A stretch of 14,488 nt of DNA, from the IMG/VR virus record IMGVR_UViG_3300028883_000184. One strand, 5' to 3'. Position numbers and translations under genes: made by a program. The stretch is from a virus. Below the pieces are notes generated by a model. It did no database searches and had not been told where the DNA came from. It was given only the letters and a program-made list of their open reading frames with translations. Positions 1 to 14,488 of the stretch are shown piece by piece. Within the stretch, counting starts at the first letter, position 1. Each line of letters starts with the position of its first letter.

Positions 1-127
1 GAAGACATCCTTACAGAAGACATCCTTACAGAAGACATCCTTACAGAAGACATCCTTACAGAAGACATCCTTACAGAAGACATCCTTACAGAAGACATCC
101 TTACAGAAGACATCCTTACAGAAGACA
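1..127. repeat. Perfect 15-bp tandem repeat GAAGACATCCTTACA, 8 full copies plus a 7-nt partial copy. Iteron-like array and left copy of the terminal redundancy.
   Basis: Read directly. 1..120 is 8 exact units, and 121..127 (GAAGACA) then diverges into CGCGAGG. 1..121 is identical to 14368..14488. Confidence 0.95.
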
Positions 128-216
128 CGCGAGGGGAATTACCCAACCCCTCTATAGAACGGCCTTTAAACGCCCATATAATGATTATTAAATCTGAGGG
201 ATAATAATTAGAGGTT

Positions 217-238
217 GGGAGGGGGCTGAAACCCTCCC
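217..238 (-). terminator. Possible stem-loop downstream of the last gene of the structural operon
   Basis: GGGAGGG (217..223) and CCCTCCC (232..238) form a 7-bp stem with an 8-nt loop, about 50 nt past the stop at 289. No clean oligo-T tract on the minus strand, so terminator function is uncertain. Confidence 0.3.
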
Positions 239-288
239 TATGTCTATCCTGCATTGCCTCCCCCCGACGGTAGGATCATGGGCGATCA

Positions 289-930
289 TTAGGAATTTGA
301 GTATAGAAGGATACATCTACAGTTCACACACTCCGAGGCGGGACCATCCCCTGGGAACATTATCCCTCCCGAGAAGGGTTCGTTTAGGTGTCTTTTCTCT
401 CCATCTCGTTTTTTGTGAGATTTCCGGGAGGCTCCATCGGATACGCAACACCAAATTTTGTATTTGTAACGGCCTTTTCCGAGCTCGTTTTCGAGCTTAG
501 AACCGTTAAGAGCTATGATTCGCTCCGTTCTTATGATCCGCTTTATTCGAGCTGGAGAGCATATGTACGAGTTCTTCAGTTTGCGAGCTGCCTCTTTTGC
601 CTCTATCGGCCAGTTTTGAAGCACAAATTTCTTTATAAATCGCATGTCGCTGTCGGTCATCTGACCGACTAACCGGTTCATGCCATGAGCTCTAAAGTAT
701 TTCCTGGCCGATTCATGAGGAAGCTCATCGATTAGTAGAGGCCAGAATCGAGCGTTCTTTTTAGCTAGCAGCCTTCGAGCTGGCTTCTCGAAAGTCGCAA
801 GGGTGACGAAGTAGTTAGGGCCTAGTCGTGAAGCTTCGGCTCGAAGATCGAAATAACCGGTCCTTCTCATCAAAGAGATGATAGGAGCCACCACCGAGGC
901 CAGAACCTCCAACCCCTCGTCTTCGATCAT
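289..930 (-). CDS. Head morphogenesis protein, Mu gpF / SPP1 gp7-like
   Basis: 213-aa ORF. The C-terminal half shows the family pattern as I remember it: IIRTERIIALNGSK, W..VSDGASRKSH..RDGE, then PGDGPASECVNCRC. ATGA start/stop overlap with the upstream gene at 927..930. TAA stop. Confidence 0.8.
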   Translation of the reverse strand: MIEDEGLEVLASVVAPIISLMRRTGYFDLRAEASRLGPNYFVTLATFEKPARRLLAKKNARFWPLLIDELPHESARKYFRAHGMNRLVGQMTDSDMRFIKKFVLQNWPIEAKEAARKLKNSYICSPARIKRIIRTERIIALNGSKLENELGKGRYKYKIWCCVSDGASRKSHKKRDGEKRHLNEPFSGGIMFPGDGPASECVNCRCILLYSNS

Positions 931-1286
931 ACTATTCTACCTATCCGAGGCCGAACCATTCTAAGGCCCTCTTGTGAGTCTTTACGGAGCGATTCCAGTT
1001 TAGCCGAAGTATCTCGAACCCTCGTATCTTGAGTTGGAGTGAACCTCCCTTTTTGATAAGATCCTTCGACCCGGTGACGGATCCTATCGGCGTAAGACCT
1101 GTAAGAATAGAAGGCAGCCAGCGAAAGGATAGCGTCATCTTTCAGAGCCTCGGACACATCAGACCGGGCCACAGCGTCGACTTTAGTTTGAGCTCTGGAG
1201 AGGTTTAGCTCGAATACGTCATCGGCTAGATCGCCTTCCTCTTGGATGTTTATGGCCGTCCTAACCTGGGAGATGGTTACCGTCAT
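927..1286 (-). CDS. Putative head-tail connector/adaptor (gp6-like)
   Basis: 119-aa ORF downstream of the capsid gene. GGAGGAT Shine-Dalgarno just upstream of the ATG at 1286. Size, position and an acidic N-terminal segment (ISQVRTAINIQEEGDLADD) fit small head-completion proteins. No diagnostic motif was recognised. Confidence 0.5.
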   Translation of the reverse strand: MTVTISQVRTAINIQEEGDLADDVFELNLSRAQTKVDAVARSDVSEALKDDAILSLAAFYSYRSYADRIRHRVEGSYQKGRFTPTQDTRVRDTSAKLESLRKDSQEGLRMVRPRIGRIV

Positions 1287-1318
1287 CGAGGATCCTCCAT
1301 AAAAATAGACGGTAGAGC

Positions 1319-1681
1319 CTACAGAGAGTAGGCCTCTATGGTTCCCGCGATTGTGGCGCCTGCGATGTCGATATGGAGCGTACCATCAGACTGAACGAAC
1401 CGGGCCGTCTCGATAGGTCCTAAAACCACTTCTGCAGCACCCCCCTCGCACTCATAGGCCAAATCACCTAGAGCCCTTCTGAAAGCTGGTTCTGAGGTTC
1501 CCGCTTTGATGGTGATACTATCCTCTTCTGTGGCTGCACTGATATGGAAAACCAGAACCACCTTCTCAAAGTCAGACCCGGCGGCTATGACGTGATCGCT
1601 TCCTTTGTCGATTGCATCGGCGGTTTTAGCTTCGACGAAGGCTCCTGAGAGTTCATTAACGATAATTTCAGATCGTACCAT
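1319..1681 (-). CDS. Hypothetical capsid-module protein (decoration or head-associated candidate)
   Basis: The ORF track starts at a TTG (1687). The ATG at 1681 lies 7 nt after a GAGGTGG Shine-Dalgarno and is the likelier start. Placed directly after the major capsid gene. Function unknown. Confidence 0.6.
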   Translation of the reverse strand: MVRSEIIVNELSGAFVEAKTADAIDKGSDHVIAAGSDFEKVVLVFHISAATEEDSITIKAGTSEPAFRRALGDLAYECEGGAAEVVLGPIETARFVQSDGTLHIDIAGATIAGTIEAYSL

Positions 1682-1692
1682 TATCAACCACC

Positions 1693-2547
1693 TCAGGACT
1701 TGTTACAGGTTAAGACGCAAAGCGCAGCCGGATCAATGACCTTAGCACCATAGCAATGCAAGCCCCTGAGTGCATCGGCGAAGTATTTCTCAGGCCTATA
1801 AGCCTCGGTCTCGTTCACGCTATCGGCAAAGGTGCACGCTCTAGAAGTCCCGGCGAGGATCTTATAGAGAGTCCCATCAGTGTTAGGTACGTTGTTGGAC
1901 TGCAGAAGGTCAAAGCCGTATAGCCTGCCTAACTGACCGTTTTTCATAACCCCCTCAATTGCAGACCAAGCCGGGTTAGTAACGCTAGAATCTTTCATGA
2001 GCTTGACCGTTAACCACGGTGGAAGGATCAGGAACCTACCTTCAGAAGGCACGTTAGCTTCGTCTAGGGCTTGTTTCACGGCTAAGAACTCATCGGTTAC
2101 GTCGTCAGTTTCTCCGTCAAAGGTCTTCGGGCTGTCATCAGAGCCCACAGCGTTACCGGCTTGGGCGGCCATGATTCCAGCGATATGTTGATCGGCTAGA
2201 TCTGAGAGCTGATAACCCGCGTCTTGGGTGGCGCTCTGCATAAGGGCTACATTCATTTGGGCCTTATCGATGTCCTCGACCCTGAAATTAAAGCTCTTGC
2301 TTTGAGTGATGTTCAGGACGGTTTGGGCGTCGTCTAACTCTTCAGGATCGCCTAAGCCGGTGGACTTGTCATAATTGTCTATGGTTATAGGGCCGTGGCT
2401 GGTAATCCTTACAGTGTCCCCCTTACTCTTGATTTCGCCTTCGTAATCACGGTTGATAACTCCAGTTTGACCGTAAACTAGGGCTTTCTGGAGGCTCTGG
2501 AATATTTGAGCGCTCCAAATCTCGCCTATAAAATTTGTTATTGCCAT
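1693..2547 (-). CDS. Major capsid protein (HK97-fold, P22-coat-like family)
   Basis: 284-aa ORF directly after a scaffold gene. The N-terminus FIGEIWSAQIFQSLQKALVYGQTGVINRDYEGEIKSKGDTVRI matches the N-terminal signature I associate with P22-coat-type capsid proteins. GGGGT ribosome-binding site upstream. Confidence 0.85.
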   Translation of the reverse strand: MAITNFIGEIWSAQIFQSLQKALVYGQTGVINRDYEGEIKSKGDTVRITSHGPITIDNYDKSTGLGDPEELDDAQTVLNITQSKSFNFRVEDIDKAQMNVALMQSATQDAGYQLSDLADQHIAGIMAAQAGNAVGSDDSPKTFDGETDDVTDEFLAVKQALDEANVPSEGRFLILPPWLTVKLMKDSSVTNPAWSAIEGVMKNGQLGRLYGFDLLQSNNVPNTDGTLYKILAGTSRACTFADSVNETEAYRPEKYFADALRGLHCYGAKVIDPAALCVLTCNKS

Positions 2548-2562: not shown

Positions 2563-3039
2563 TCATATTTTACTGAGTGAGCCATCTTTCAACTGTTGCG
2601 AGATCTGATCCCAGTTTTCAGTTATCTCGGAGGAGGACATGGATTTGATATCGGCCCTTGTGAACGGTTTCGTCGTATCCTGAGGCGGGTTAGTTCTCGA
2701 ACCCACAGAAGGACCCGGCCCTAAGCTTTCGGATAGCGTTTTGGCGTCCGTCTCCAGCTCCTCTTTAGATTCCCCCTGGAGACGTTCGGCCATGGCTTCT
2801 GGAAGGTTGTGAGCCTTCGCCACCTCGATTTTAAGGGCTTTCCTCAGACTATCCTTATTCTCATCAAGCTTCGTTTTGAGCTTTTCATTTTCTGCTTTTG
2901 CAGCGTCTAGATCGGCCTTAATTTGGTCATAATCGGCGTATTTCGCCTTCTCTTTGGCCAACCTTTCCCCAACAATCCGATCTACATCGGCTTGGGTGAA
3001 TTTCTTTTCATCGTCCTGGGTAATTTTAAATCCCCCCAT
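2563..3039 (-). CDS. Scaffolding protein (DUF4355-type)
   Basis: 158 aa, highly charged, with predicted coiled coil (KADLDAAKAENEKLKTKLDENKD). FTQADVDRIVGERLAKEKAKY resembles the conserved opening of DUF4355 scaffolds. Lies immediately upstream of the capsid gene. Confidence 0.75.
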   Translation of the reverse strand: MGGFKITQDDEKKFTQADVDRIVGERLAKEKAKYADYDQIKADLDAAKAENEKLKTKLDENKDSLRKALKIEVAKAHNLPEAMAERLQGESKEELETDAKTLSESLGPGPSVGSRTNPPQDTTKPFTRADIKSMSSSEITENWDQISQQLKDGSLSKI

Positions 3040-3107
3040 TTCCCAAAAAACACGATCTTTACGGCGTCGTTTATCCTAATTGTATAATTAATTCGTCTCT
3101 ATTATAA

Positions 3108-3129
3108 ATAGTTTATCACAAAAAGGACA
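3108..3129 (-). promoter_or_regulatory. 22-bp element ATAGTTTATCACAAAAAGGACA (copy 1), abutting a TATA-like box upstream of the scaffold/capsid genes
   Basis: Exact copy of 7310..7331. On the minus strand it reads TGTCCTTTTTGTGATAAACTAT, followed at once by TTATAAT. Lies 69-90 nt upstream of the scaffold ATG (3039). Confidence 0.6.
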
Positions 3130-3229: not shown

Positions 3230-3382
3230 ATGGCAAAACCACTGCGATTGGGCTATAAAATGACCTTAGAAGAGTCAAAAGCTTTCGCGGAAATTGACCG
3301 TGGGTATGTGGTTACTCAGCGGCAGAAAGATCTAGTCAGGAATGCCAAAAAATCCTGCAGCACGCACCCAATTAAATTTTAA
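3230..3382 (+). CDS. Unlisted 50-aa ORF, candidate antitoxin/partner of the GNAT toxin
   Basis: Translated by hand: MAKPLRLGYKMTLEESKAFAEIDRGYVVTQRQKDLVRNAKKSCSTHPIKF. GAGGTG lies 10 nt upstream of the ATG at 3230. Its TAA stop shares one base with the GNAT ATG (TAATG at 3380..3384). It is below the 60-aa cutoff of the supplied track. Confidence 0.6.
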   Translation: MAKPLRLGYKMTLEESKAFAEIDRGYVVTQRQKDLVRNAKKSCSTHPIKF

Positions 3383-3942
3383 TGGCATTCCCTATCAAAG
3401 ATTTAAAGATAGAAGCCCTTAGTGAGTCGCATGCTTCTGCGCTCAATAGTTTTACTTGTGGCACCTCCGCAGATTTAGATGATTTTATACAAAATGATGC
3501 TATATATGAGCAAGGACGACGATTAAATAGAACGTTCTTATTCTTTTATAAAAAAACACTTATTGGTTATGTCTCTTTAACCTCCGACCTTACAAACAAG
3601 GTGCGTTTCTATAAAGCCGATCTTGTGCAGAAAAAGGACAGTGATAGTCCTGTTTACACATCCTTCCCATGTGTTTTAATTGGAAGATTAGCAGTTAAAG
3701 ATGGTTATCATCGCAAGGGAATCGGAGAGTTCATAGTAACAAGAGCAATAGGAATTGTGTTGGAGAATGTTTCAAAATTTATCGGCGTTAGGTTTGTCAC
3801 AGTCGATCCAATAAACGAAGACGCGCGAAAATTCTATAAAAATAAATGCGGTTTTGTTGATATGATTGGTGTCAAAGTTGACGAGGAACCTGGTAGGATG
3901 TATATTAACCTGGAGAAAATCTGTGGAAATATGGGGCAGTAG
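3382..3942 (+). CDS. GNAT-family N-acetyltransferase, TacT/AtaT-like type II toxin candidate
   Basis: 186 aa. FTCGTSADLDDFIQNDA resembles the N-terminal F.CG...L..FL motif of TacT-like toxins. LIGRLAVKDGYHRKGIGEFIV is the acetyl-CoA motif A (R/Q-x-x-G-x-G). ARKFYKNKCGF is motif B with the conserved Tyr. Confidence 0.85.
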   Translation: MAFPIKDLKIEALSESHASALNSFTCGTSADLDDFIQNDAIYEQGRRLNRTFLFFYKKTLIGYVSLTSDLTNKVRFYKADLVQKKDSDSPVYTSFPCVLIGRLAVKDGYHRKGIGEFIVTRAIGIVLENVSKFIGVRFVTVDPINEDARKFYKNKCGFVDMIGVKVDEEPGRMYINLEKICGNMGQ

Positions 3943-4013: not shown

Positions 4014-5417
4014 TTAAATTACCGACAAAGCCTCATCGTTTCGCTCTTCTTTGATCGCTTCAAGTTCGGTGTCTAGGTCTGTCTCTGTGGCGTCCTCATC
4101 TAACCGGGCCAAAGCACCCCTAGTCGAAGTGAGGTTTGCCGTTTTACGTGTGGCTTCCACTTGTGCATTTTCGAGCGGATCCTTAGGCAATGCAGACCGC
4201 CACTCGAGGGCCACGTTGGTTAGTTTAGAAGAGCCCGACAGCCTCGAGGATACCTCCAGCTCAGCACATAGCCTAAGAGCCTCCAGGATCGGTTTTTTGA
4301 TCCTCAACCTAAGCCGGTTCACCTTAGCTAAGGTCGGGATAGCTAACCGTTTGAGAGCTGAACCGCTCTCTGCCAACCCGTTCTTAGTGTCTCCGAGAAG
4401 GGCCGGGCTGATTTCTCCAACGGCCATAAGCTCGGATTTGATCTCTTCGATTTGAGAGAAGTTGGCCGCTAGGGAGGCATCCCATGTGAGATATTGAGGA
4501 AATTTTTGATCCTCGTCAACCCCGAAGTACCGCCCGCCTCCTATGGTAAGAACGGGTTCGCCTGTGTATGGATCGGTCTCGATGACGTCGGACGGTCCCG
4601 CTATGTTAGGCGCACTGAACTTATCGAGCGTCTTAGAGGTCCTTATAAGCCTCTTTTCGAGCTCTTCGACCAGCCCCTCGAGATCTCCATAATCATCGAG
4701 CCCGTACACGCCGTTAGACTGAAGCGAGCCATGGAGCGGTATTATCAGGAAATCTTTAACCCCCGTCTCCAGTTCAGGCTTAAGATCTTTGAACCTCTCT
4801 AGGGTAGAAAGATAGATCTCTTTGCTGATGGTTCCCCCTCCTGAGAGCTCATAGAGTCGGTTCTCGATGGTCCCTTTTTTGTGGATCTCCAGCCTCAAAA
4901 AGTCGGTTTTCACGTGATCTACGAATTCAGTCCATGAATAAGCTAAAACGTGAGCTAATACCTGAGAGCCGTCGTCTGGAGAGACCACCGGGAACCAAAA
5001 TTTAGGGTTCACTCGTTCGATAATCCCTCTTTGGTCGAACCTCACTTTGAGGACGGCATTCCCAAATTTGAGAACGTCTCCTATGGAGTCGTATATGAGT
5101 TGGTGGTAGTCGTTAGCCTCGATGATCCTATCAACGGTTTGTTGCTCATCGGCGGTGATCTTCGGAGGCTGACCGACTGCAAGATCGCTTATTAGCGTTG
5201 TCGATCGCTTGAACCAGTTAACCGCTATATGAACGATGTTAGGGGCATCCACAGGATTGAGTTTAGGGTCCTCTACAAGATTGAGGCCCGGAAAAGTACG
5301 GTCGTGGTCTCCCTCAAATAAGAGGATGGTTCGATCGTAACGTCTCAGTCGGTTTGTTTCGTCCCTCGGTGGCCATGGTTTACCCTGGCCTAAAAAGTCA
5401 AAATTAGTAAGAACCAT
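4014..5417 (-). CDS. Portal protein
   Basis: 467-aa ORF directly after TerL, with AGGAGGGTG Shine-Dalgarno. The N-terminus GKPWPPRDETNRLRRYDRTILLFEGDH resembles the conserved start of SPP1 gp6-type portals. Acidic C-terminal tail. Confidence 0.8.
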   Translation of the reverse strand: MVLTNFDFLGQGKPWPPRDETNRLRRYDRTILLFEGDHDRTFPGLNLVEDPKLNPVDAPNIVHIAVNWFKRSTTLISDLAVGQPPKITADEQQTVDRIIEANDYHQLIYDSIGDVLKFGNAVLKVRFDQRGIIERVNPKFWFPVVSPDDGSQVLAHVLAYSWTEFVDHVKTDFLRLEIHKKGTIENRLYELSGGGTISKEIYLSTLERFKDLKPELETGVKDFLIIPLHGSLQSNGVYGLDDYGDLEGLVEELEKRLIRTSKTLDKFSAPNIAGPSDVIETDPYTGEPVLTIGGGRYFGVDEDQKFPQYLTWDASLAANFSQIEEIKSELMAVGEISPALLGDTKNGLAESGSALKRLAIPTLAKVNRLRLRIKKPILEALRLCAELEVSSRLSGSSKLTNVALEWRSALPKDPLENAQVEATRKTANLTSTRGALARLDEDATETDLDTELEAIKEERNDEALSVI

Positions 5418-7047: not shown

Positions 7048-7278
7048 TTAATGCCGGAAAAGAGCCGGGTTCTCAGTTTCGGGAAGGCGATACAAAAGCG
7101 CGTTCGGACGGCCTCCAGGTCGGGAAGCTAAAAGATATCGGGAATGAGCCTTATAGACCGCTCCTTTGATCGAAAGGGCTGAGGAGTGTTCCCCTTCGGC
7201 CTTAAGCCGTTCTACGATCTCCATCGAGGAGACTTCTTCATCGGGTTGAACTACTGAGACGACACGTTCGACTAGCAT
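7048..7278 (-). CDS. Small wHTH-like protein, first gene of the packaging operon
   Basis: The track starts at a TTG (7296). The ATG at 7278 lies about 27 nt downstream of a TATATATA box (7304..7311), so a leaderless start at 7278 looks likelier. MEIVERLKAEG ... GGRPNALLYRL looks like helix plus wing. Confidence 0.55.
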   Translation of the reverse strand: MLVERVVSVVQPDEEVSSMEIVERLKAEGEHSSALSIKGAVYKAHSRYLLASRPGGRPNALLYRLPETENPALFRH

Positions 7279-7309
7279 ACAAAGTTTAGATTTCAATTAA
7301 GACATATAT

Positions 7310-7746: not shown

Positions 7747-8423
7747 GAACGGTTGAGGATTAAGCGATATCCTCTCTTTCCAGGTCGGATATCTTCCTTA
7801 ATCTCGAATCGTCCATCTTTCTTTAGATGCTTTACGAAACGATACAACTTGTCTTTAGAGAGCTTTCCGTCTTTCCCTCTCATATCGGGGAAATTCTTCT
7901 TACAAACATCGGTAACATGCATGGTGATCCCATCTTTATGTGGATATTCTTCAAGATGGTAAACCATCGTGTTGTATATCGCATCGATTCGATCTTTTGT
8001 GTCTTTTGATGGTGCTGGATTGCGCCTCCGCTCGCGCTCTCGATACGCCATCCTTCTGAGATGCATATTATTAAGTGTATTATTCGTGCAACTGTTGGCT
8101 AAGTCAGAATCGCCGTATATGTCAATATGTTTGGGCAAATCTGCAGCCGTTGGGTCGTCGCTTTGACGCGCATACGAAAACCGATCATATGCATCAAAAT
8201 CACACCATTGTAGATATGTGAATACAGCTTCAAGCTGAGTTTTTATCCCCCTATTTTCCAGCCGAAGCTTCTCGTTTTCTTGCCTCAGCTCTTCGATTGC
8301 TTCCTTCATCTCATCGATTGCATCGAGGGCATATATGAGACGCTCTTCGACATCAAAAACAGCACCATGAGGGCCTACATGAGGCGCCGAAACATTTATT
8401 ACGTTACAAGTATCTCTATTCAT
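7734..8423 (-). CDS. Coiled-coil plus C-terminal wHTH-like protein, function unknown
   Basis: 229 aa. GGAGTGA Shine-Dalgarno 9 nt upstream of the ATG at 8423. Heptad-like EMKEAIEELRQENEKLRLENRGIK, basic RERERRR linker, and C-terminal LSKDKLYRFVKHLKKDGRFEIKEDIRPGKRGYRLILN. Confidence 0.7.
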   Translation of the reverse strand: MNRDTCNVINVSAPHVGPHGAVFDVEERLIYALDAIDEMKEAIEELRQENEKLRLENRGIKTQLEAVFTYLQWCDFDAYDRFSYARQSDDPTAADLPKHIDIYGDSDLANSCTNNTLNNMHLRRMAYRERERRRNPAPSKDTKDRIDAIYNTMVYHLEEYPHKDGITMHVTDVCKKNFPDMRGKDGKLSKDKLYRFVKHLKKDGRFEIKEDIRPGKRGYRLILNRSDII

Positions 8424-8926: not shown

Positions 8927-9319
8927 TTAGTCAACGACTGAGGGGGTTTCCCTTTTGTTTTTCGTTGGGCGATTCTCCAAGCTTTTTACCATTGCCTCAA
9001 GCTCATCTAAATCATCGAATCCCGAAATAAGCGTCTTTACGTGATTCTCATCCAATCCAAGCGCAAGCAGTCTCTTCCGAAGCCCCTCTAAAATCAAAGC
9101 ATTTTCTTTTTCTTCCTCTTCAAAACGTTGAAGCCCCATGACCAACAACTCCCCACCAACCGTAGTCAGTGTGGAGTTATATTCATACGCTATATCTTCC
9201 AGTCGTTTGTGATATTCGTGGGGGACACGTACAGTTATTCTAACCGAGGCCCCCTCAATCCTAACGAAGCGGTTTTCACTACCCCGTATATCTTTTTGAG
9301 ACATAATACTACTTTGCAT
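8927..9319 (-). CDS. Ribbon-helix-helix (CopG/Arc-like) DNA-binding protein
   Basis: RITVRVPHEYHKRLEDIAYEYNSTLTTVGGELLVMGL fits a beta-strand/helix/helix RHH fold. The track start at 9322 is TTG. ATGs at 9319 and 9304 are alternatives, so the start is uncertain. Confidence 0.75.
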   Translation of the reverse strand: MQSSIMSQKDIRGSENRFVRIEGASVRITVRVPHEYHKRLEDIAYEYNSTLTTVGGELLVMGLQRFEEEEKENALILEGLRKRLLALGLDENHVKTLISGFDDLDELEAMVKSLENRPTKNKRETPSVVD

Positions 9320-9415
9320 CAATAGTATTTAATCTTGATGCACAGCATAATAGTTGATGTGCATCCAATATTGTTGATACGTATAGCGTGTATGCACAGC
9401 ATGCGTGCATGCAAT
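9313..9415. promoter_or_regulatory. Operator-like palindrome cluster upstream of the RHH gene
   Basis: TGCATCAA (9315..9322) pairs with TTGATGCA (9335..9342). GATGCACA (9337..9344) pairs with TGTGCATC (9358..9365). ATGCACAGCAT is repeated at 9338 and 9392. There are two GCATGC palindromes near 9399..9414. Confidence 0.5.
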
Positions 9416-9781: not shown

Positions 9782-10159
9782 TTATGAGTATATCGGCATG
9801 ACTTTCAGCTCACTTATCACCTCTTCAGAGGGTGAGGGATCACATGATGAAGGGGCGAAATAGTTCGATACCGCATCGTCAAGCTTAAACAATTTCTCCA
9901 CAATGGGGTTTTCGATGTCTAATTTGTACATCTTCGCACGGCCAACTTCTCGGGTAGGTATTACCAATCCCGCCATTTCCAGCTTAGGCCACGCAGCCGC
10001 CAACGTGGTTCGGCTTATCCCGGCTCCTTTGGATATGTCTGTCTTGGAATAGTCGAATATCTCGTTATCCAACATGAAATCCAGTATCTTAATAATCGAC
10101 TCAGAGCCGAATGTTTGCAAAAACAAGCTCTGTTCGCTGCTACATTTCATCTTACCCAC
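9782..10159 (-). CDS. Winged-helix transcriptional regulator (MarR/TrmB-like, archaeal style)
   Basis: ILDFMLDNEIFDYSKTDISKGAGISRTTLAAAWPKLEMAGLVIPTREVGRAKMYKL reads as recognition helix plus beta wing. The track start at 10159 is GTG, with an alternative ATG at 10150. Confidence 0.8.
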   Translation of the reverse strand: MGKMKCSSEQSLFLQTFGSESIIKILDFMLDNEIFDYSKTDISKGAGISRTTLAAAWPKLEMAGLVIPTREVGRAKMYKLDIENPIVEKLFKLDDAVSNYFAPSSCDPSPSEEVISELKVMPIYS

Positions 10160-10334: not shown

Positions 10335-10625
10335 ATGGACATGACATCAAAACAAGAACTACGGTTCATAATAATAAAAAAATTAATACGTTTAAATAAG
10401 TGGGGGGGTTATCATACAGATATTACGAACTTAAAAAAAGGCACCCCTACCCACCTACAAGGCGATATAATCAAAGAAGCTAAAATAATGATTAAAGAAA
10501 CTCTATTAATCTCTAAACCCAGCACTGGTGAAATACATGTATCCCTTAATCCCACTATGAAAGCCGAGATTGACCAAATATACAAACAAGGTGCAGGACG
10601 ACGAAAAAAACATATAAGAAGTTAA
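10335..10625 (+). CDS. Small basic protein, possible wHTH, first gene of the AT-rich cassette
   Basis: 96-aa ORF. LLISKPSTGEIHVSLNP resembles a wing, and the tail is basic (GRRKKHIRS). The TATA-like box is about 25 nt upstream of the ATGs at 10335 and 10341. Function unknown. Confidence 0.6.
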   Translation: MDMTSKQELRFIIIKKLIRLNKWGGYHTDITNLKKGTPTHLQGDIIKEAKIMIKETLLISKPSTGEIHVSLNPTMKAEIDQIYKQGAGRRKKHIRS

Positions 10626-10652
10626 GGCAAAATAAATAAGAAGGAATCGAAT

Positions 10653-11495
10653 ATGATCAATAGAGACATTATCGATGTATTAAATTTTAGAGAGGATATA
10701 TCACCATTCCTCGTGCATTTAACTAAAGATGGGCCCATTGACGAATCACCAAACAAACAAACATCAAAAGAAGCTCTGGAGAAAATTATCGAAAACCAAG
10801 AACTTGTTTGCGCTAAATGCTTACTCACTAGACGGGACAAAAACGGAAATGAGATCGGAAAATATAACATGAGCGTTGCTCGTTTCGGTATGTATACTCG
10901 GAATATGGATGACGAAAAACAACGCCAATTATTTAGCGCAATCAGCTTTACAGAGACGCCACTAAACGAAATTCAATCCTTAATTGATATCAAGGGCCGT
11001 AATGTGGATCTCAGACAATATGGGCTTGTATTTCACAAGAACAAACTAGCAGATAAAGGTGTAGGTCCTGTTTTGTATTTAAACAATACCAATAAAAATA
11101 ACAAAGACGAGCTTATTTACAAACTTTGTAAAATTTTAATAACAGAGTGTGACGGGGAACATGAAGATGTGGCTAAAGAACTTTTTCCGATGATCTCAGT
11201 ATTTGGAAACCAAATCACGCCATATGGAAAGAATGGGACAAAACTAAAAAATTACGACTTCTTATGGGAGAGGGAGTGGCGTTATCCCTATGCAAAAGGA
11301 CATCTTAAGTTTGATCGTGACGACCTGTTTATTGGATTATGTCCAGATAATGAAATTGATAAGTTTGAGGAGTTAGCAAATACTTGTAAATTGAAAGATC
11401 TTAAATTTGTAGATCCTTACAGAAATCTGAAATATTACGCAAAAAAATTAATTACAGAGAGAAAGAATGCAGGTATAGAAGCTTCTGTAGTGTAA
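10653..11495 (+). CDS. AbiGi-like abortive-infection family protein (putative)
   Basis: 280 aa with an AGGA ribosome-binding site. The motif series FLVHLTK, ISFTETPL, YGLVFHKNKLADKGVGPVLYL and WEREWRYP matches my memory of the AbiGi family layout (H-x-T, F-T-E/D, YG-h-x-F, E-R-E-W-R). The region is visibly more AT-rich than the structural genes. Confidence 0.65.
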   Translation: MINRDIIDVLNFREDISPFLVHLTKDGPIDESPNKQTSKEALEKIIENQELVCAKCLLTRRDKNGNEIGKYNMSVARFGMYTRNMDDEKQRQLFSAISFTETPLNEIQSLIDIKGRNVDLRQYGLVFHKNKLADKGVGPVLYLNNTNKNNKDELIYKLCKILITECDGEHEDVAKELFPMISVFGNQITPYGKNGTKLKNYDFLWEREWRYPYAKGHLKFDRDDLFIGLCPDNEIDKFEELANTCKLKDLKFVDPYRNLKYYAKKLITERKNAGIEASVV

Positions 11496-11690: not shown

Positions 11691-11779
11691 AAATTCATCT
11701 CCCCTAACCACTCTTCGAACGTATCAGGATACTCCTCGAAAAGGTCGGAAAGAAGGACCTTTACGCATTCAGAACTCAC
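11687..11779 (-). CDS. Unlisted 30-aa micro-ORF translationally coupled to the SWIM gene
   Basis: GTG at 11779 overlaps the TGA stop of the 136-aa gene (GTGA, the same coupling as at TerS/TerL). Product: MSSECVKVLLSDLFEEYPDTFEEWLGEMNL. No ribosome-binding site was assessed. Confidence 0.4.
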   Translation of the reverse strand: MSSECVKVLLSDLFEEYPDTFEEWLGEMNL

Positions 11780-12186
11780 GCGGCCATCTCCTCGGGAATG
11801 CCGAACATAGGCCGCTGGTTCTCATCGAGGGGTTCCTGTTGTTCTCTTTTGATTGCCCTTTCTCGGTTACGTTGGTCTATTCGGGCCTTACGTTCCAACC
11901 TTCGCGCAAGTTCTTTTTGGTGTTTGCAGAGCTCGCCCGTTCCTGCCTTTCTAAATCGGAAATCTGGACAGCTACATTCTGACAGTGTAACCATGTAATA
12001 GCCGCGCTTGTCACTGGTTTTCATAAAAGCCGTAGGCTCACTAAAATAGGGCTCTCCAAAGCACACCACTTTAGGGAGCTGGGTAACGGCCATTTTGGCT
12101 ACGAAAGCTACCCCTTCGGCGCTGTGAACGCCTTCTGGTAGGTCTTCTGCTATCGGTTCGGATACATCGATTTGTTTAATCGACAT
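11776..12186 (-). CDS. SWIM zinc-finger protein
   Basis: CSCPDFRFRKAGTGELCKH fits the SWIM pattern CxC-x(n)-CxH. Basic C-terminal tail. GGTGA Shine-Dalgarno upstream of the ATG at 12186. Confidence 0.8.
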   Translation of the reverse strand: MSIKQIDVSEPIAEDLPEGVHSAEGVAFVAKMAVTQLPKVVCFGEPYFSEPTAFMKTSDKRGYYMVTLSECSCPDFRFRKAGTGELCKHQKELARRLERKARIDQRNRERAIKREQQEPLDENQRPMFGIPEEMAA

Positions 12187-12294: not shown

Positions 12295-12471
12295 ATGAAA
12301 GAATACACTACAATAGGAAAGATTTTTGGTGGCGGGAAAGTAACCGTTCCAAAAGCAATACGTGACGCTATGAGGCTAAGGGATGGTGATTTAGTCGAAA
12401 TCACGATTAGAATAGTAGAAGATGAGTCAGAAGGTAAACAGGGAAACGCTGAGCGCCCTGTCACCGCCTGA
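12295..12471 (+). CDS. Unlisted 58-aa AbrB/SpoVT-like (MazE-fold) DNA-binding protein
   Basis: Hand translation: MKEYTTIGKIFGGGKVTVPKAIRDAMRLRDGDLVEITIRIVEDESEGKQGNAERPVTA. G-x-VTVPKAIR-x(3)-L-x(2)-GD-x-V is the swapped-hairpin AbrB signature. TTTAAA box about 27 nt upstream of the ATG. The 65-aa minus-strand ORF at 12267..12464 is its antisense shadow. Confidence 0.75.
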   Translation: MKEYTTIGKIFGGGKVTVPKAIRDAMRLRDGDLVEITIRIVEDESEGKQGNAERPVTA

Positions 12472-12498
12472 AAGACATTTCGAACCTGGTGAATTCAA

Positions 12499-12948
12499 AT
12501 GTCAACAGATACATTAGTCGTACCAGAATATGAAGCTATCGAACCGTCCTCTACCTTCGAGCGCTTAGTCATGGCCCGTTTGGAGGCTCTTGAAGCTGAA
12601 AATCGAGAGCTAAAGGACATTGTGGAAGAGCAACAGAAAGAGATAGATGCCCTTCGAGAAGAGATAGGCAGAGAGCGGGCTTTTGATCGAAAACGCATTT
12701 CTAAGCTCGAAACCCGCAAGCAACAGACCGGTCCCAAATCTCGTGAACAAATTAGTGAACTAATGAACTATCTCCAAGATTGCCCTAACCACATCACGCC
12801 CCTCGAGGGAGCACGCCACCATCTAGGTGTGAGTAAAAATCGTTTAAGCAATCTGTTAGCCTCGCCGGATGCTGAAAATCAGTTTCTGCTAATCAAGAAT
12901 CCTAATGATCACCGCAAACGGCTAATTAAACTTCGGCCACAAATTTAG
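12499..12948 (+). CDS. Coiled-coil plus C-terminal wHTH-like protein, same architecture as the 229-aa ORF
   Basis: 149 aa. ARLEALEAENRELKDIVEEQQKEIDALREEI coiled coil, then ISELMNYLQDCPNHITPLEGARHHLGVSKNRLSNLLA ... FLLIKNPNDHRKRLIKL. GGTGA Shine-Dalgarno upstream. Confidence 0.7.
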   Translation: MSTDTLVVPEYEAIEPSSTFERLVMARLEALEAENRELKDIVEEQQKEIDALREEIGRERAFDRKRISKLETRKQQTGPKSREQISELMNYLQDCPNHITPLEGARHHLGVSKNRLSNLLASPDAENQFLLIKNPNDHRKRLIKLRPQI

Positions 12949-13176: not shown

Positions 13177-13488
13177 TTACTTGTTGTATTTCGCTACTAT
13201 GGAAGGTGCTTTTTTGTATACTTTATCGTGATGATCTACATATATAAATGTGATAATATTATCATCGAACGTGTATATAATAACATACGGGTCAACGTGC
13301 GAACCGCGAGCATGTTTAAGATCGTGGCGTTTTGGATCGCCAATTTGTGGATCCGATACTATCTGATCAATCTTTCCAAGTAGACGATCTTTTAAGGCCC
13401 TGTCCTTCTTAGTTAGCTTATTGAATTGCTTATCAAATTCGATGGTACTTCTATATTCATATCTCGCAGAATCTAATGGACGGGACAT
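13177..13488 (-). CDS. RelE/ParE-superfamily type II toxin
   Basis: 103 aa. IEFDKQFNKLTKKDRALKDRLLGKIDQIVSDPQIGDPKRHDL and the C-terminal PYVIIYTFDDNIITFIYVDHHDKVY match the RelE/ParE layout (F..-KL, then a Y-h-h-Y beta core ending H/R-x-x-x-Y). Confidence 0.8.
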   Translation of the reverse strand: MSRPLDSARYEYRSTIEFDKQFNKLTKKDRALKDRLLGKIDQIVSDPQIGDPKRHDLKHARGSHVDPYVIIYTFDDNIITFIYVDHHDKVYKKAPSIVAKYNK

Positions 13489-13508
13489 GTTATCAATAAG
13501 AGAATAGG

Positions 13509-13679
13509 TTATAGGTTGCGTAGATGATCCAAGAATTCTTTTTTGTTAGTGAAAGCTTTCACCTGGCCAGTTTTGTATTGTTCGATTCCACGCTTCAGCC
13601 CCTCCTCGAACTCCGTCACCCTTGCATCGCCTTTATCCACATAATTGGCCTTGACCGGGTGAACCTTTGCACTCGCCAT
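13509..13679 (-). CDS. Unlisted 56-aa ORF, candidate antitoxin of the RelE-like toxin
   Basis: Hand translation: MASAKVHPVKANYVDKGDARVTEFEEGLKRGIEQYKTGQVKAFTNKKEFLDHLRNL. GAGGT lies 8 nt upstream of the ATG at 13679. It ends 20 nt before the toxin ATG. The plus-strand 75-aa ORF at 13524..13751 is its antisense shadow. Confidence 0.6.
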   Translation of the reverse strand: MASAKVHPVKANYVDKGDARVTEFEEGLKRGIEQYKTGQVKAFTNKKEFLDHLRNL

Positions 13680-13761
13680 GGTAAATACCTCAAATCTAAA
13701 CGTCGTTCTTTGGGGATATATATCTTTTCACAAATGCCAATAATATCTTGATTTTATTCGA

Positions 13762-14265
13762 CTAACAACTTGTCGATCTATTCTCCATTAGGTCAAAGGT
13801 ATAACGCCGCGCCCTTTCCCCGTCCCGTCTTACGTTCTTAGCTTCGAGTCCCTCTGCTTTCATCAACCGTCCGAGTGGTCTACTTTCCATCCCAACAGCT
13901 TCTGCAATCACCGAAACGGGGGGTTCTATGCCTTTGCTGTGGAAGTCTTGGATCATTTTGATCGCCTTTTCGACGACGCTTTTGTCTGTCTTAGGTAAGG
14001 CCTTTCGTCGTGTCTTCTGTAAGGGTGTCTTCTGTAAGGATGTGTCTTTAGTTCTTACAGAAGACTTTTCTTTGTCTTCTGTAAGGCTTGCTGGAAGGTT
14101 TTTCCCGATGTACTTTTTCCTGGTTTTGCCACCTTCCCACCAGTAAGCATACCAATAAGGGCCATGGCCTGCGCCCGTTGCGCATTTCTTGCATCGCTCT
14201 TTTCCACAGAAGCTAAACTCCTTCTTGTATAGCCGCCCTGTCGCGGGATCTTTGAGCGAGTCCAT
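13762..14265 (-). CDS. Zinc-ribbon-like N-domain plus C-terminal wHTH protein, candidate iteron-binding initiator/regulator
   Basis: 167 aa. FCGKERCKKCATGAGHGPYWYAYWWEGGKTRKKYIGK is a CxxC...HGPYWY...K-YIG motif that I recall from an uncharacterised family (possibly DUF6788, to be confirmed). C-terminal VSVIAEAVGMESRPLGRLMKAEG ... RRDGERARRYTF is wHTH-like. The gene lies next to the iteron array and contains inverted iteron copies. Confidence 0.8.
   Translation of the reverse strand: MDSLKDPATGRLYKKEFSFCGKERCKKCATGAGHGPYWYAYWWEGGKTRKKYIGKNLPASLTEDKEKSSVRTKDTSLQKTPLQKTRRKALPKTDKSVVEKAIKMIQDFHSKGIEPPVSVIAEAVGMESRPLGRLMKAEGLEAKNVRRDGERARRYTFDLMENRSTSC
14012..14085. repeat. Iteron core copies inside the 167-aa coding sequence
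   Basis: GTCTTCTGTAAGG at 14012..14024 and 14027..14039 (15-nt spacing, inverted relative to the terminal array). CTTACAGAAGAC at 14054..14065 faces GTCTTCTGTAAG at 14074..14085, a perfect 12-bp inverted repeat with an 8-nt spacer. Confidence 0.9.
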
Positions 14266-14270
14266 AATTT

Positions 14271-14344
14271 GTCTTATGTAAGGAATGGTATATAGGATTT
14301 TCTTACATAAGACAAATTCCTTACATAAGATTCTTATGTAAGGA
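14271..14344 (-). promoter_or_regulatory. Promoter/operator of the 167-aa gene: variant iterons (CTTACATAAG) as inverted repeats around a TATA box
   Basis: GTCTTATGTAAG (14271..14282) and CTTACATAAGAC (14302..14313) are a perfect 12-bp inverted repeat bracketing TATATA (14289..14294). That box lies about 27 nt from the ATG at 14265. TCCTTACATAAGA-T-TCTTATGTAAGGA is a 27-bp palindrome at 14318..14344. Confidence 0.65.
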
Positions 14345-14361
14345 TTCGACGAGTTGCAAGT

Positions 14362-14488
14362 CTTACAGAAGACATCCTTACAGAAGACATCCTTACAGAA
14401 GACATCCTTACAGAAGACATCCTTACAGAAGACATCCTTACAGAAGACATCCTTACAGAAGACATCCTTACAGAAGACATCCTTACAG
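14362..14488. repeat. Perfect 15-bp tandem repeat GAAGACATCCTTACA: 6-nt partial plus 8 full copies plus 1 nt (right copy of the terminal redundancy)
   Basis: Read directly. 14368..14487 is 8 exact units in the same phase as 1..120. The window ends inside the array. Confidence 0.95.

Follow-up and report, generated by a model that had tools for sequence, protein, structure and literature searches.

A complete tail-less, capsid-encoding element from a family of mobile elements of Methanotrichaceae-type archaea

The window analysed here, a whole stretch of 14,488 nucleotides, is a complete genome, either a circle of 14,382 bp or a unit in circularly permuted form, that encodes a head and a packaging machinery with no recognisable tail. 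We favour, with somewhat better than even confidence, the reading that it is a tail-less capsid-encoding mobile element, of a family living in Methanotrichaceae-type archaea, that is tailed by a helper of the vir515-like siphovirus kind. The best reading of such an element is an archaeal, independently evolved and here plasmid-like counterpart of the bacterial capsid-forming PICIs (cf-PICIs). The interpretation of an earlier note, made from the sequence alone, is supported overall; its helper dependence for tails and lysis is inferred and not shown, and the host of this element is also only inferred. No earlier description of such an archaeal element was found in the searchable literature, and if tail borrowing is true, a lifestyle so far described only in bacteria would now be present in archaea.

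Circular closure, family and host

The window ends are identical over exactly 121 nt, as the earlier note had stated when it suggested a closed genome of ~14.37 kb. This overlap alone is weak evidence of closure because it lies wholly within a perfect 15-nt tandem iteron array (8.5 copies per end). The rationale for closure is instead based on an independent MEGAHIT contig, L083 (14,523 bp, k=141), which is 100% identical to the window, circularly permuted, and crosses the window junction unbroken from the MuF gene through the iteron array to the DUF6788 gene. Since this permuted assembly spans the junction, closure is real; the circular unit is 14,382 bp (14,523 - 141), and the circle closes through 9.9 iteron copies (148 nt in L083). 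The same element was found, identical, in at least five further datasets.

The window belongs to a family of more than 130 related loci, with a unit of 11.9-14.5 kb, that occurs both as circular contigs and as integrated copies. Circular relatives include L042 (99-nt overlap) and L060 (127-nt overlap), and one relative is a concatemer that carries 1.76 copies, 100% identical, of a unit of 11,923 bp. In several relatives, two diverged units are joined in an odd concatenation. Integrated copies of 13.5-14.0 kb are bounded by exact att repeats at tRNA-His or tRNA-Leu: L158 (19-nt repeat, tRNA-His, 13.9 kb), L168 (68-nt repeat, tRNA-Leu, 13.5 kb, within an 81.5-kb contig) and L165 (66-nt repeat, tRNA-Leu, 14.0 kb, integrase adjoining attR). 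At L050 the head module runs directly into LeuRS, an aminotransferase and an archaeal Hel308 helicase. Unlike the window, family relatives encode a primase-helicase, a tyrosine integrase or both, and tRNA genes are their insertion sites; an HNH nuclease is found in some members, and accessory modules differ widely. Persistence as a plasmid, previously offered as an alternative, is therefore not a rival but a second face of a family in which episomal and integrated forms both exist.

Could the window nevertheless be an artefact or a remnant, either a piece assembled from a larger genome of a tailed virus or a degenerating provirus whose tail genes are gone? Its end overlap falls in a tandem repeat, where assemblers break, and the odd concatenations among relatives would also suit an artefact. 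However, the permuted identical assembly bridges the junction, and circular relatives and att-delimited integrated copies are of equal size. The concatemer of 1.76 units likewise speaks against a fragment. A remnant is opposed by the head ORFs, all intact in the window, and by a capsid gene dN/dS of 0.05-0.11, which denotes strong purifying selection. Together with the recovery of the identical element in further datasets, this selection indicates that the genes are in use. We find this explanation hardly credible.

Some integrated copies sit in Methanotrichaceae chromosomes, and TATA boxes lie ~25-30 nt upstream of leaderless start codons. Both observations support the archaeal host that had been hinted at from promoter geometry, and residence of the family in Methanotrichaceae-type, acetate-using methanogenic archaea is supported. 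The host of this particular element is not established because its GC content of 0.44 lies below that of most family loci (0.51-0.58), including all those binned to Methanotrichaceae.

Head, packaging and maintenance genes

The first half of the window holds the head and packaging genes, with one cargo cassette between them:

289..930, minus strand: MuF-like minor head or head morphogenesis protein, 213 aa (PF04233 3.7e-9, phrog_2468 2.8e-17)
927..1286, minus strand: 119-aa ORF, no function assigned, at the position of the relatives' Ad1 adaptor (no family match)
1319..1681, minus strand: 120-aa beta-sandwich protein (phrog_24894 3e-17; predicted model pLDDT 92.4)
1693..2547, minus strand: major capsid protein, 284 aa (phrog_267 1.9e-59, PF25209 4.5e-11)
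2563..3039, minus strand: head scaffolding protein, 158 aa (phrog_233 1.5e-19)
3103..3129, minus strand: promoter/operator repeat copy 1, TGTCCTTTTTGTGATAAACTATTTATA on the minus strand, upstream of the scaffold-capsid unit
3230..3942, plus strand: cargo cassette of a 50-aa ORF and a GNAT acetyltransferase, 186 aa (PF00583 6.6e-9, phrog_1758 1.7e-30)
4014..5417, minus strand: portal protein, SPP1 gp6-like, 467 aa (PF05133 9e-11, phrog_533 1e-28)
5420..6634, minus strand: terminase large subunit TerL, 404 aa (PF04466/PF03237/PF17289, phrog_2 3.3e-48)
6631..7041, minus strand: putative TerS, 136 aa, N-terminal HTH (weak HTH matches, phrog_5536 7e-9)
7048..7278, minus strand: 76-aa protein, first gene of the packaging unit (no family match)
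7305..7331, minus strand: promoter/operator repeat copy 2, upstream of the packaging unit

HMM matches for TerL, portal, scaffold, capsid and MuF bear out the earlier claim of a head-and-packaging-only genome, and these are five of the seven head proteins it named. TerS remains putative, resting only on its position (it overlaps the TerL start) and its conservation in relatives. The seventh, the 119-aa ORF, finds no support as a connector or adaptor: it has no Pfam or PHROGs family match, hhalign against genuine Ad1 adaptors gave a probability of only 0.6%, and its AF2 model (pLDDT 56) had no match in a Foldseek search. Three homologues of it were found among 5.8 billion proteins. The 120-aa beta-sandwich gene directly follows the capsid gene, is kept across the whole family and in vir515, and probably encodes a decoration or auxiliary protein of the capsid. 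The window has no prohead protease. The 76-aa protein has homologues in L024, L047, L048 and L052.

The single minus-strand operon that had been proposed (7278 to 289) does not hold, as the head genes form two co-directional units, each behind a copy of one 27-nt promoter/operator repeat and separated by the plus-strand GNAT cassette (3230-3942). The TATA box of the 76-aa gene ends 25 nt upstream of its ATG, and the mRNA starting there is probably leaderless. Within the cassette, which lies between portal and scaffold, the stop of the 50-aa ORF overlaps the GNAT start in the layout of a toxin-antitoxin pair.

The rest of the window, with the iteron array at both ends, is as follows:

1..127, the same array as 14362..14488, no strand: iteron array, 15-nt unit, core CTTACAGAAGAC
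7373..7746, no strand: 69-nt inverted repeats, 93% complementary, around a 236-nt AT-rich, repeat-rich spacer
7734..8423, minus strand: 229-aa orphan (g229), N-terminal coiled coil (coiled-coil matches only)
8927..9322, minus strand: 131-aa ORF (no matches)
9782..10159, minus strand: 125-aa winged-helix protein, Csa3-like (Csa3 2.8e-5, HTH_54 3.4e-4)
10335..11495, plus strand: 96-aa ORF and AbiGi-like protein, 280 aa (PF10899 1.6e-7, AbiGi 5.5e-5)
11776..12186, minus strand: 136-aa SWIM zinc-finger protein (weak SWIM match)
12295..12948, plus strand: AbrB/MazE-like 58-aa protein and 149-aa coiled-coil protein (PF04014 2.7e-5)
13177..13679, minus strand: ParE/RelE-type toxin, 103 aa, with an upstream 56-aa partner (PF05016 1.5e-8, phrog_1213 7e-7)
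13762..14265, minus strand: DUF6788 protein, 167 aa (PF20586 1.6e-5)
14266..14318, no strand: inverted iteron-core pair flanking the TATA box of the DUF6788 promoter

As described before, this remaining ~7 kb holds repeats and only small DNA-binding, toxin or Abi ORFs. The largest unassigned ORF of the window is the 229-aa orphan, which has one distant homologue among 1.84 billion representatives. Where the earlier note counted two toxin-antitoxin modules, the toxin-type modules are ParE with its 56-aa partner, GNAT with its 50-aa partner, the AbiGi-like gene and a lone AbrB/MazE-like gene. The AbiGi-like gene is abortive-infection-type cargo. The SWIM zinc-finger protein is common to the window and relatives without a primase.

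The iteron core CTTACAGAAGAC has 22 matches, with 0 expected by chance, and four iteron cores fall within the ORF of the DUF6788 protein. In this protein a repeat linker connects a Cys/His-rich block at the N-terminus with a conserved C-terminal domain; the protein is presumed to bind the iterons, and the inverted core pair at its promoter is a probable autoregulatory operator. The inverted-repeat layout at 7373..7746 recurs at an equal map position in L052 and L047, and the region is a candidate replication origin or packaging site. The roles of both iterons and inverted repeat are inferred.

An alternative hypothesis is that of a domesticated or defensive element, in which the capsid module is kept for interference with incoming viruses, for example by titrating their tails or packaging machinery, or for a GTA-like role, and not to spread the element itself. 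The AbiGi-like protein and toxin modules among the cargo fit such a role, and host protection is common in bacterial satellites (PMC10085698). However, a TerS and a TerL of its own and a unit length suited to a small head point to self-packaging. Moreover, the occurrence of episomal, integrated and widely diverged copies across many metagenomes is typical of a mobile element and not of a host-fixed locus. Gene transfer agents also encode tails, and we consider this hypothesis quite improbable.

Absence of tail genes and the question of a helper

How would such a head reach a new cell? None of the window's ORFs has a match to families of tail proteins, lysis proteins, integrases or replicases. 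Thus neither profile nor structure searches (Pfam, PHROGs, NCBIfam, PADLOC, PDB and two AlphaFold models) gave the unassigned ORFs the tail or lysis identity that would have refuted the earlier note. A related genome with an adjacent tail module would also have done so: none adjoins the head genes in the 26 distinct loci whose sequence continues for 4 kb or more downstream of the capsid gene, no tail genes occur in the three integrated copies bounded by exact att repeats, and tblastn with the tail proteins of vir515 and D6E had no match in any locus with capsid identity of at least 50%. In vir515 and D6E, tail genes directly follow the head genes. Little is known of how archaeal tailed viruses lyse their hosts, so the lack of a lysis gene is weak evidence. 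With ~1,190 aa of window proteins unassigned and g229 an orphan, a small novel adsorption device is not strictly ruled out.

An Ad1 head-tail adaptor is encoded by most relatives, among them the ones whose capsid proteins are closest (L001, L002, L004, L113), which speaks for heads made to take up a tail; that of L011 matches phrog_477 (1e-15) and has tblastn relatives in other loci. No recognisable adaptor was found in the window or in relatives such as L052, L047 and L016, and how tails would dock on the portals of these members is unexplained under the tail-borrowing reading.

The missing adaptor in the window and several relatives also suits an autonomous plasmid-virus hybrid without a helper, in which tail-less DNA-filled capsids are delivered by an unknown tail-independent route, or move only between cells within sheathed Methanothrix filaments, and life is otherwise that of a plasmid. 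The full plasmid-type kit of the window (iterons with DUF6788, ParE- and GNAT-type toxin modules), its lack of an integrase and the absence of an identified matching helper agree with this. It is nonetheless unlikely in either variant: most relatives retain Ad1, whose only role known to us is joining portal to tail; we know of no portal- and terminase-packaged HK97-type head (Caudoviricetes) that is infectious without a tail; and the closest full-size relatives of the family are ordinary siphoviruses or myoviruses.

The tail, lysis and (here) replication genes might instead reside on an always co-inherited second replicon, making the window half of a bipartite or obligately paired virus. That the window lacks all three and that unit size is constant across the family are compatible with such pairing. 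Integrated copies, however, occupy tRNA genes without a companion and bring their own integrase and, in most cases, primase, as an independent element would; a conserved partner contig did not turn up, and accessory modules vary widely among members. We regard pairing as improbable.

If tails are borrowed, a candidate helper is the vir515-type lineage of full-size siphoviruses (36.5 kb, full tail), which has homologous heads and was detected in 5 of the family's IMG samples. The primases of vir515 and family locus L030 share 63% identity; the vir515 adaptor is only ~35% identical to those of the family, and the co-occurrence may reflect shared host and habitat only.

We hypothesize that the element persists between transfers through the DUF6788 DNA binder and its ~10-iteron array, the ParE- and GNAT-type toxin modules and the AT-rich candidate origin flanked by inverted repeats, and that host or helper enzymes replicate it. 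Two co-regulated archaeal promoters would then turn on TerS-TerL-portal and scaffold-capsid-decoration-like-MuF, and the head proteins would form small capsids, for which genome length suggests T=3 or T=4; lengths of 11.9-14.4 kb fit the T=3/T=4 predictions of PMC7762592. The element's own terminase would fill these capsids with element DNA, and a co-infecting tailed virus of the vir515-like siphovirus kind would supply tails and release functions to the filled heads. Capsid size, self-packaging, tail piracy and helper identity are inferences, with no particle, virome or induction evidence behind them.

Comparison with known systems

Among the closest known systems, vir515 (BK063672; Caudoviricetes sp., Methanosarcinales host, bioreactor, 36.5 kb circular), shares head-protein families with the window's family (identity of 43-46% for capsid, ~40% for decoration-like protein, ~28% for scaffold, ~35% for Ad1, 30% for TerL and 27% for portal), and it and its IMG/VR relatives share habitats and samples with the family. 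Unlike the family, it continues from its head genes straight into a full siphovirus tail module (major tail protein, tape measure, distal tail proteins); it is 2.5 times larger than the family unit, and the family contains no homologue of any of its tail proteins.

Archaeal satellites are known in pSSVx and pSSVi (Saccharolobus fuselloviruses), SRCEs (haloarchaeal/nanohaloarchaeal spindle viruses) and NMV2S (Asgard siphovirus; a 3.8-kb plasmid-like circle). These are likewise plasmid-derived, some with primase-helicases, and are proposed to use a helper virion. However, they measure 2.7-9 kb and none has a complete HK97-type head with a terminase; pSSVx, pSSVi and SRCEs are tied to spindle-shaped viruses, and each encodes no more than one or two proteins of the virion. 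P4 and SaPI-type PICIs are small (11-15 kb) and join small capsids to helper tails, and P4 can also live as a plasmid, but they redirect helper capsid proteins and have no capsid protein, portal or TerL of their own. Phage-plasmids (P1, N15, SSU5 types) similarly combine an episomal state, iterons and toxin-antitoxin modules with virion genes, yet they are complete viruses, 40-100 kb or more in length, that encode tails and lysis functions.

Bacterial cf-PICIs build their own small capsids and borrow helper-phage tails. As defined with SatelliteFinder (PMC10085698), they resemble the window's family in size (~10-15 kb), in having their own capsid protein, portal, TerS, TerL and adaptor (the last in most relatives of the window), and in lacking tail and holin genes. 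The window's relatives further match them in an integrase and primase-replicase upstream of the packaging genes, in site-specific insertion and, for some members, in an HNH nuclease. The family differs in its archaeal host, in a head built on a scaffold (P22/SPP1-type module with MuF) and not a prohead serine protease, and in the absence of any recognised AlpA-, Stl- or MerR-type regulator. Many of its members, the window among them, exist as circular episomes that carry iterons and DUF6788, whereas only three cf-PICIs are not chromosomal. The relationship of the family's head genes to those of archaeal vir515-type viruses implies an origin independent of the cf-PICIs.

Head and packaging genes of the element

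The earlier note had read the head and packaging genes as one minus-strand operon. The ORF map and profile searches bear out the co-directional module listed below; the single operon has to be given up, since a plus-strand cassette splits the module and each half has its own promoter copy.

Head and packaging module of the window (coordinates, strand, product and basis)
7048-7278, minus: 76-aa protein without a family match, listed by position and kept in relatives
6631-7041, minus: putative TerS; weak HTH matches and phrog_5536 only, 4-nt overlap with TerL, conservation
5420-6634, minus: TerL; phrog_2, 3.3e-48
4014-5417, minus: SPP1-type portal; phrog_533, 1e-28
3230-3942, plus: cargo cassette that splits the head module, a 50-aa ORF and a GNAT acetyltransferase
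2563-3039, minus: scaffold; phrog_233, 1.5e-19
1693-2547, minus: major capsid protein; phrog_267, 1.9e-59, and PF25209
1319-1681, minus: 120-aa protein; phrog_24894, 3e-17
927-1286, minus: 119-aa ORF; no match
289-930, minus: MuF-like protein; PF04233, 3.7e-9

TerS, also named in the earlier note, keeps its place on position and conservation only and lacks direct family support. An identical 27-nt sequence with a terminal TATA box precedes both halves of the module, and in both head-gene units the TATA box is joined to the motif TGTCCTTTTTGTGATAAA (minus strand, window 7310-7331 and 3108-3129). With at most four mismatches, the motif recurs in opposite orientation in the portal-scaffold spacer of ~30 relatives (for example at ~3063-3084 of the related locus L011), where the flanking proteins are only ~50% identical. 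It is absent from loci of the type of Caudoviricetes sp. vir515 (BK063672), a 36.5-kb full-tailed archaeal siphovirus with a Methanosarcinales host, and may be a conserved late operator. The portal-scaffold gap is also a hot spot for cargo insertion, occupied by the GNAT cassette in the window (3040-4013), by a 301-aa ORF in L060 (1469-2374) and by ~1 kb of other sequence in L014 (2233-3266). Two short tandem repeats, perfect or nearly so, are present in the window: ATAGTAATC in 3.7 copies between the scaffold promoter and the GNAT cassette (3162-3194), and a 12-nt unit in three copies in the promoter region of the gene for a 229-aa orphan protein (8547-8582).

The structural model of the 120-aa protein is confident (pLDDT 92.4) and describes a small beta-sandwich whose only matches are to uncharacterised Caudovirales proteins of about its own size (TM ~0.75) and, weakly, to jelly-roll lectins and capsid proteins. 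These predicted matches, together with the fixed position of the gene after the capsid gene, suggest that the protein decorates the capsid and is not a tail tube. The 119-aa ORF had been described as connector-like, a label that is unsupported by any family, fold or profile similarity to Ad1, the head-tail adaptor carried by most relatives; hhalign against the Ad1 adaptors gave a probability of 0.6%. Only 3 homologues of this ORF exist among 5.8 billion proteins, its AF2 model is poor (pLDDT 56, from 4 sequences) and has no Foldseek match in the PDB, a PDB profile search returned nothing, and a scan of IMG/VR found no relatives. Could the window be a decaying provirus? The capsid gene has a dN/dS of 0.05-0.11 against seven relatives, with synonymous sites near saturation, which rules this out; the head genes are not decaying.

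Profile searches of the other ~7 kb of the window found only small ORFs, including DNA-binding, toxin and Abi types.

Gene content of the other half of the window
229-aa coiled-coil orphan, on Pfam coiled-coil matches only, judged to be noise
131-aa ORF
125-aa protein with a Csa3-like winged helix
96-aa ORF and 280-aa AbiGi-like protein
SWIM-finger protein
AbrB/MazE-like protein and 149-aa coiled-coil protein
ParE/RelE toxin and 56-aa partner
13762-14265, minus: DUF6788 protein (167 aa), from profile searches

The 229-aa ORF is the longest one without assignment, and only an identical copy was found in the 5.8-billion set, with one marginal homologue among 1.84 billion representatives. As the first reading of the sequence had proposed, no tail, lysis, integrase, polymerase, primase or helicase gene was matched in Pfam, PHROGs, NCBIfam or PADLOC, a call to be taken together with the ~1,190 aa of window protein that remain without assignment and with the poor knowledge of archaeal lysis genes. 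Likewise, the window has no match to a prohead serine protease, no Rfam match at E <= 0.1 and no tRNA in a tRNA scan, and no AlpA, Stl or MerR regulator was recognised in it or in its relatives. A search of PLSDB plasmids returned only distant bacterial capsid matches.

The 12-nt core CTTACRKAAGAC of the iterons, the 15-nt repeats at the window ends, occurs 22 times in the window against 0 expected, which becomes ~16 on the circle because the arrays at the two ends are a single one, counted twice. The cores are confined to one region, comprising the array, an inverted pair on either side of the DUF6788 TATA box and four cores inside the DUF6788 ORF. Those four (window 14012-14085) encode the LTED/LQKT/LPKT linker repeats of the protein. 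With ~10 perfect 15-nt repeats beside the DUF6788 gene and an inverted pair on its promoter, the window has the layout expected of an iteron plasmid. In relatives, repeats with a diverged core are arranged in the same way around the DUF6788 genes, and for this reason the protein, which has an N-terminal Cys/His-rich block and a conserved C-terminal domain, is judged from sequence alone to be the likely iteron binder. Its putative target is CTTACAGAAGAC. The protein has no characterised homologue and no PDB or PHROG match; it is also encoded in integrated copies, and it could be an initiator, a copy-control protein, a regulator or a centromere protein, roles that are not told apart.

Just upstream of the packaging unit, 69-nt inverted repeats surround a 236-nt AT-rich spacer (window 7373-7746). 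The same layout in unrelated sequence is found at the same map position in two relatives (L052, 11631-11996; L047, 5041-5346), and at the corresponding site of a third (L004, 5427-5714) there are TGGAAA/TTTCCA inverted repeats reminiscent of archaeal origin recognition boxes. Across these four elements, inverted repeats of 33-76 nt flank AT-rich spacers of 214-240 nt. The window site could be an origin or a terminase recognition (pac/cos) site.

Circular map, integrated relatives and host

The two window ends are identical over 121 nt, from which a closed genome had been suspected. The identity is exact and falls within a perfect tandem array of 15-nt units that measures 127 nt at either end; alone it proves little, since such an array is where short-read assemblers break. 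Copies 100% identical to the window were present in two MEGAHIT k141 assemblies, one short ENA contig and two Logan runs (lookup of the 229-aa protein). Among these, a permuted contig of 14,523 bp runs from window position 8929 down to 1, through an unbroken array of 148 nt (9.9 iterons), and then from 14488 down to 12116, over the 11.2 of its 14.5 kb whose sequence was examined. Provided that the remaining 3.3 kb are collinear, its two ends share exactly 141 nt, the k-mer size, and the unit comes to 14,382 bp. Because this identical contig crosses the junction, the map of the window is circular, and the suspected closure rests on it and not on the end overlap alone. A circularly permuted linear molecule of a headful-packaged virus would assemble identically to a circle.

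Unit length is constant across the family. Circular relatives measure 13,800 bp (L042, whose 99-nt overlap lies in unique sequence) and 14,384 bp (L060, with an overlap of 127 nt), a unit of 11,923 bp was assembled 1.76 times at 100% identity, and many family contigs are 13-15 kb long. Three contigs join diverged unit pairs head to tail at 86-93% repeat identity (L006/L011, 21.4 kb; L014/L022, 26.5 kb; L124/L147, 32.5 kb), and these are either assembly chimeras of co-existing circular-genome variants or genuine tandem arrays.

Capsid-based scans recovered 41 loci from IMG/VR, 11 from GTDB genomes and 80 from metagenomes, and an adaptor search reached further ones. All loci have in common the gene order TerS, TerL, portal, scaffold, capsid, 120-aa protein and head completion genes. 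The non-head half is modular: most members encode a primase-helicase just upstream of TerS, many encode DUF6788 and some a tyrosine integrase. A subgroup formed by the window, L052 and L047 has no replicase and has a SWIM protein and coiled-coil proteins in common. ORFs of 792-1012 aa in relatives, considered as possible tail proteins, were identified as primase-helicases.

Inspection of a 38.8-kb Methanotrichaceae contig (L050) reveals integrase, primase-helicase, head module, Ad1 and MuF in this order, with the head module adjoining host genes for LeuRS, an aminotransferase and a Hel308 helicase with archaeal domain 4. For L050 and L087 no att repeats were detected, the left flank lying outside the sequence covered. 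Three further integrated copies have exact att repeats, and their interior has the head module and no tail.

Integrated copies delimited by att repeats
L158: 19-nt att, 3' end of tRNA-His, 13.9 kb, integrase beside the tRNA
L168: 68-nt att, 5' half of tRNA-Leu(CAA), 13.5 kb, within an 81.5-kb contig
L165: 66-nt att, 3' half of tRNA-Leu(CAG), 14.0 kb, tyrosine integrase beside attR

Just outside attR of L158, an 80-aa fragment (14211-14450) is 86% identical to the integrase of the element and may be left over from another insertion, either earlier or adjacent. That the window is a fragment of a larger virus is ruled out by the permuted junction-spanning contig together with the att-delimited copies.

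The host was sought through the genomes in which relatives reside. Eight of the 11 GTDB loci lie in assemblies assigned to Methanotrichaceae, to Methanothrix or to Methanocrinis. One unit-length member of 14,527 bp (L051, NZ_JARFPK010000054.1) belongs to the assembly of Ca. Methanocrinis natronophilus Mx, from a highly purified culture, and has TerS and a primase at its left and right ends, respectively, and DUF6788 with iterons in its central part; the species description mentions no plasmid or virus. A bacterial host was considered on account of loci binned to Synergistetes, Rikenellaceae and Syntrophobacterales and was rejected, as these are without host genes: the contigs are element sequence only, with a complete unit of 13.9 kb in L042 and mere fragments in L044 (1.1 kb) and L049 (3.3 kb). 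The copies with chromosomal flanks are archaeal (Methanotrichaceae). Moreover, the first genes of the transcription units in the window have a TATA-like box ~25-35 nt before the ATG, which implies leaderless mRNAs, and internal genes have GGAGG-type sites; this layout agrees with the archaeal promoter pattern suspected in the earlier note.

The GC content of the window is 0.44, whereas values of 0.51-0.58 are found in the majority of family loci and in every locus binned to Methanotrichaceae. A low-GC branch of the family (L004, L113 and L164-L174) has values of 0.39-0.45, and since the host of that branch is unidentified, the host of the window itself can be inferred at most to be a methanogen-type archaeon. 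Within the window, GC is ~0.50 in the head half (1-7000) and 0.35-0.42 in the accessory half (7000-14488). This mosaic and the low GC of the whole element suggest that the head module was recently combined with a backbone that came from a lower-GC host. The plasmid-like window member shows that the head module moves between different maintenance backbones.

Tail genes and proposed tail docking

In the nearest complete tailed viruses, namely vir515 (capsid 43% identical to that of the window) and the Bacillota phages D6E and AP45 (45-46%), the tail genes directly follow the head genes. A related genome with an adjacent tail module would have refuted the first reading of the window, and none was found among the relatives. 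The tblastn queries were ten vir515 proteins encoded downstream of its adaptor, comprising the neck, the major tail protein, the tape measure and the distal tail proteins, and five proteins of the D6E neck and tail. None of them matched in any locus with a capsid at least 50% identical to that of the window; among these loci are 26 distinct ones in which at least 4 kb of sequence follow the capsid gene. The few ORFs of 370-450 aa left unexplained in relatives comprised a DNA methylase, MMPL transporters of the host and proteins that lack a Pfam match. The window family is a discrete, selected and mobile unit of ~14 kb, with genes for a complete DNA-packaging head and none for a tail.

How would such a head acquire a tail? 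Docking of a foreign tail is proposed mainly because Ad1 is kept in most relatives, among them the ones whose capsids are closest (L001, L002, L004 and L113). The L011 adaptor matches phrog_477 at 1e-15 and has tblastn relatives in other loci. In relatives, Ad1 is always followed by a ~200-aa protein (L011, 5370-6050; L050, 11915-12511; L165, 11494-12087; and others) that has no Pfam, PHROG or PDB match and may be a family-specific head-completion or tail-docking protein. Neither an adaptor nor this protein is detectable in the window.

Contigs 97-100% identical to vir515 occur in 5 IMG samples that also hold family members, and head-protein families are common to vir515 and the family. The primase of a vir515-type locus (L053, 276-3446) is 63% identical to that of the head-only element L030 (2521-3792), and another vir515-type contig (L099, 1686-1949) encodes a 44% homologue of the 149-aa protein of the window. 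By these sequence comparisons, genes flow between tailed viruses and head-only elements. Siphoviruses of the vir515 type are a candidate helper lineage on circumstantial grounds; their adaptors are only ~35% identical to those of the family, and the window has no recognisable adaptor.

Proposed lifestyle and comparison with known systems

In the proposed mechanism, the element proteins would assemble small heads, the element terminase would pack element DNA into them, and a co-infecting tailed virus would supply the tails that complete the filled heads. The head size is inferred from length: reported genome ranges are 8.1-17.1 kb for T=3 and 13.2-24.5 kb for T=4 capsids, with a peak at ~42 kb for T~7 (PMC7762592), so that the elements, at 11.9-14.4 kb, fall within the T=3 and T=4 ranges and vir515, at 36.5 kb, near the T~7 peak. 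We hypothesize that the family comprises the first capsid-forming satellites of archaeal tailed viruses, which arose from a vir515-like siphovirus by tail loss, independently of the bacterial capsid-forming PICIs (cf-PICIs), and which build small heads of their own, steal tails and live in Methanothrix-type methanogens as tRNA-integrated elements, as primase-driven episomes or, like the window, as replicase-less iteron/toxin-antitoxin plasmids. We consider this hypothesis just as apt to fail as to hold; without particle, induction and host-linkage data, helper use and self-packaging are inferences.

If the hypothesis is true, the strategy of an own head and a stolen tail evolved independently in both prokaryotic domains, and Methanothrix/Methanosaeta, key producers of methane from acetate in digesters, sediments and wetlands, harbour a layer of gene transfer and probably of virus interference. 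It would also explain why many "incomplete" proviruses are reported in Methanotrichaceae MAGs. The unit-length 14.5-kb contig in the Ca. Methanocrinis natronophilus Mx assembly makes the family tractable.

Capsid-forming satellites were recognised in 2023, and the large surveys covered bacteria only (PMC10085698). Archaeal satellites in the searched literature are small plasmid derivatives, mostly tied to spindle-shaped viruses (pSSVx, pSSVi, SRCEs and NMV2S). Such elements go unmentioned in surveys of archaeal proviruses and viruses, one of which reports a Methanotrichaceae MAG with seven "provirus regions", and a preprint on small HK97 genomes states that tail genes are often missing in short metagenomic genomes and does not describe the window family. 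No prior description of the family was found in the searched literature, and a mention in the methanogen-virus compendium of Medvedeva et al. is not excluded.

An autonomous tailed virus would have the HK97-fold capsid, portal and terminase seen here and would also need tail genes, either for a tube or tape measure or for a podovirus nozzle and fibres, which are lacking. A gene transfer agent would be fixed in its host, would encode a tail and would package random host DNA; on the first two points it does not fit an element without tails and with mobile, episomal and att-flanked copies. The pSSVx/SRCE type, a small plasmid backbone with one or two proteins from a spindle-shaped virus, does not fit because the structural genes form a complete Caudoviricetes head module and are not those of spindle-virus proteins.

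The functionally closest known system is the bacterial cf-PICI, which makes its own small capsids and borrows helper-phage tails. The SatelliteFinder model for cf-PICIs asks for an own capsid protein, portal, TerS and TerL and forbids tail and holin (PMC10085698). The window meets both parts, with TerS by position only, and no tail is present in relatives. Other cf-PICI traits are not met: the head module has the phrog_233 scaffold and the phrog_267/PF25209 capsid in place of a prohead protease/HK97-type capsid module, and the window is circular and has no integrase, regulator, primase-replicase or chromosomal location, the tyrosine integrase and primase-helicase being present only in relatives. 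The host is not bacterial either, as the integrated copies lie in Methanotrichaceae chromosomes. The nearest capsid proteins in the phage collection are those of an archaeal virus and of Bacillota phages, and the head genes indicate that the family originated independently, from archaeal siphoviruses. The window family therefore works like a cf-PICI without being one, because it has an archaeal host, a scaffold-based head without a prohead protease, no recognised AlpA/Stl/MerR regulator and many episomal members.
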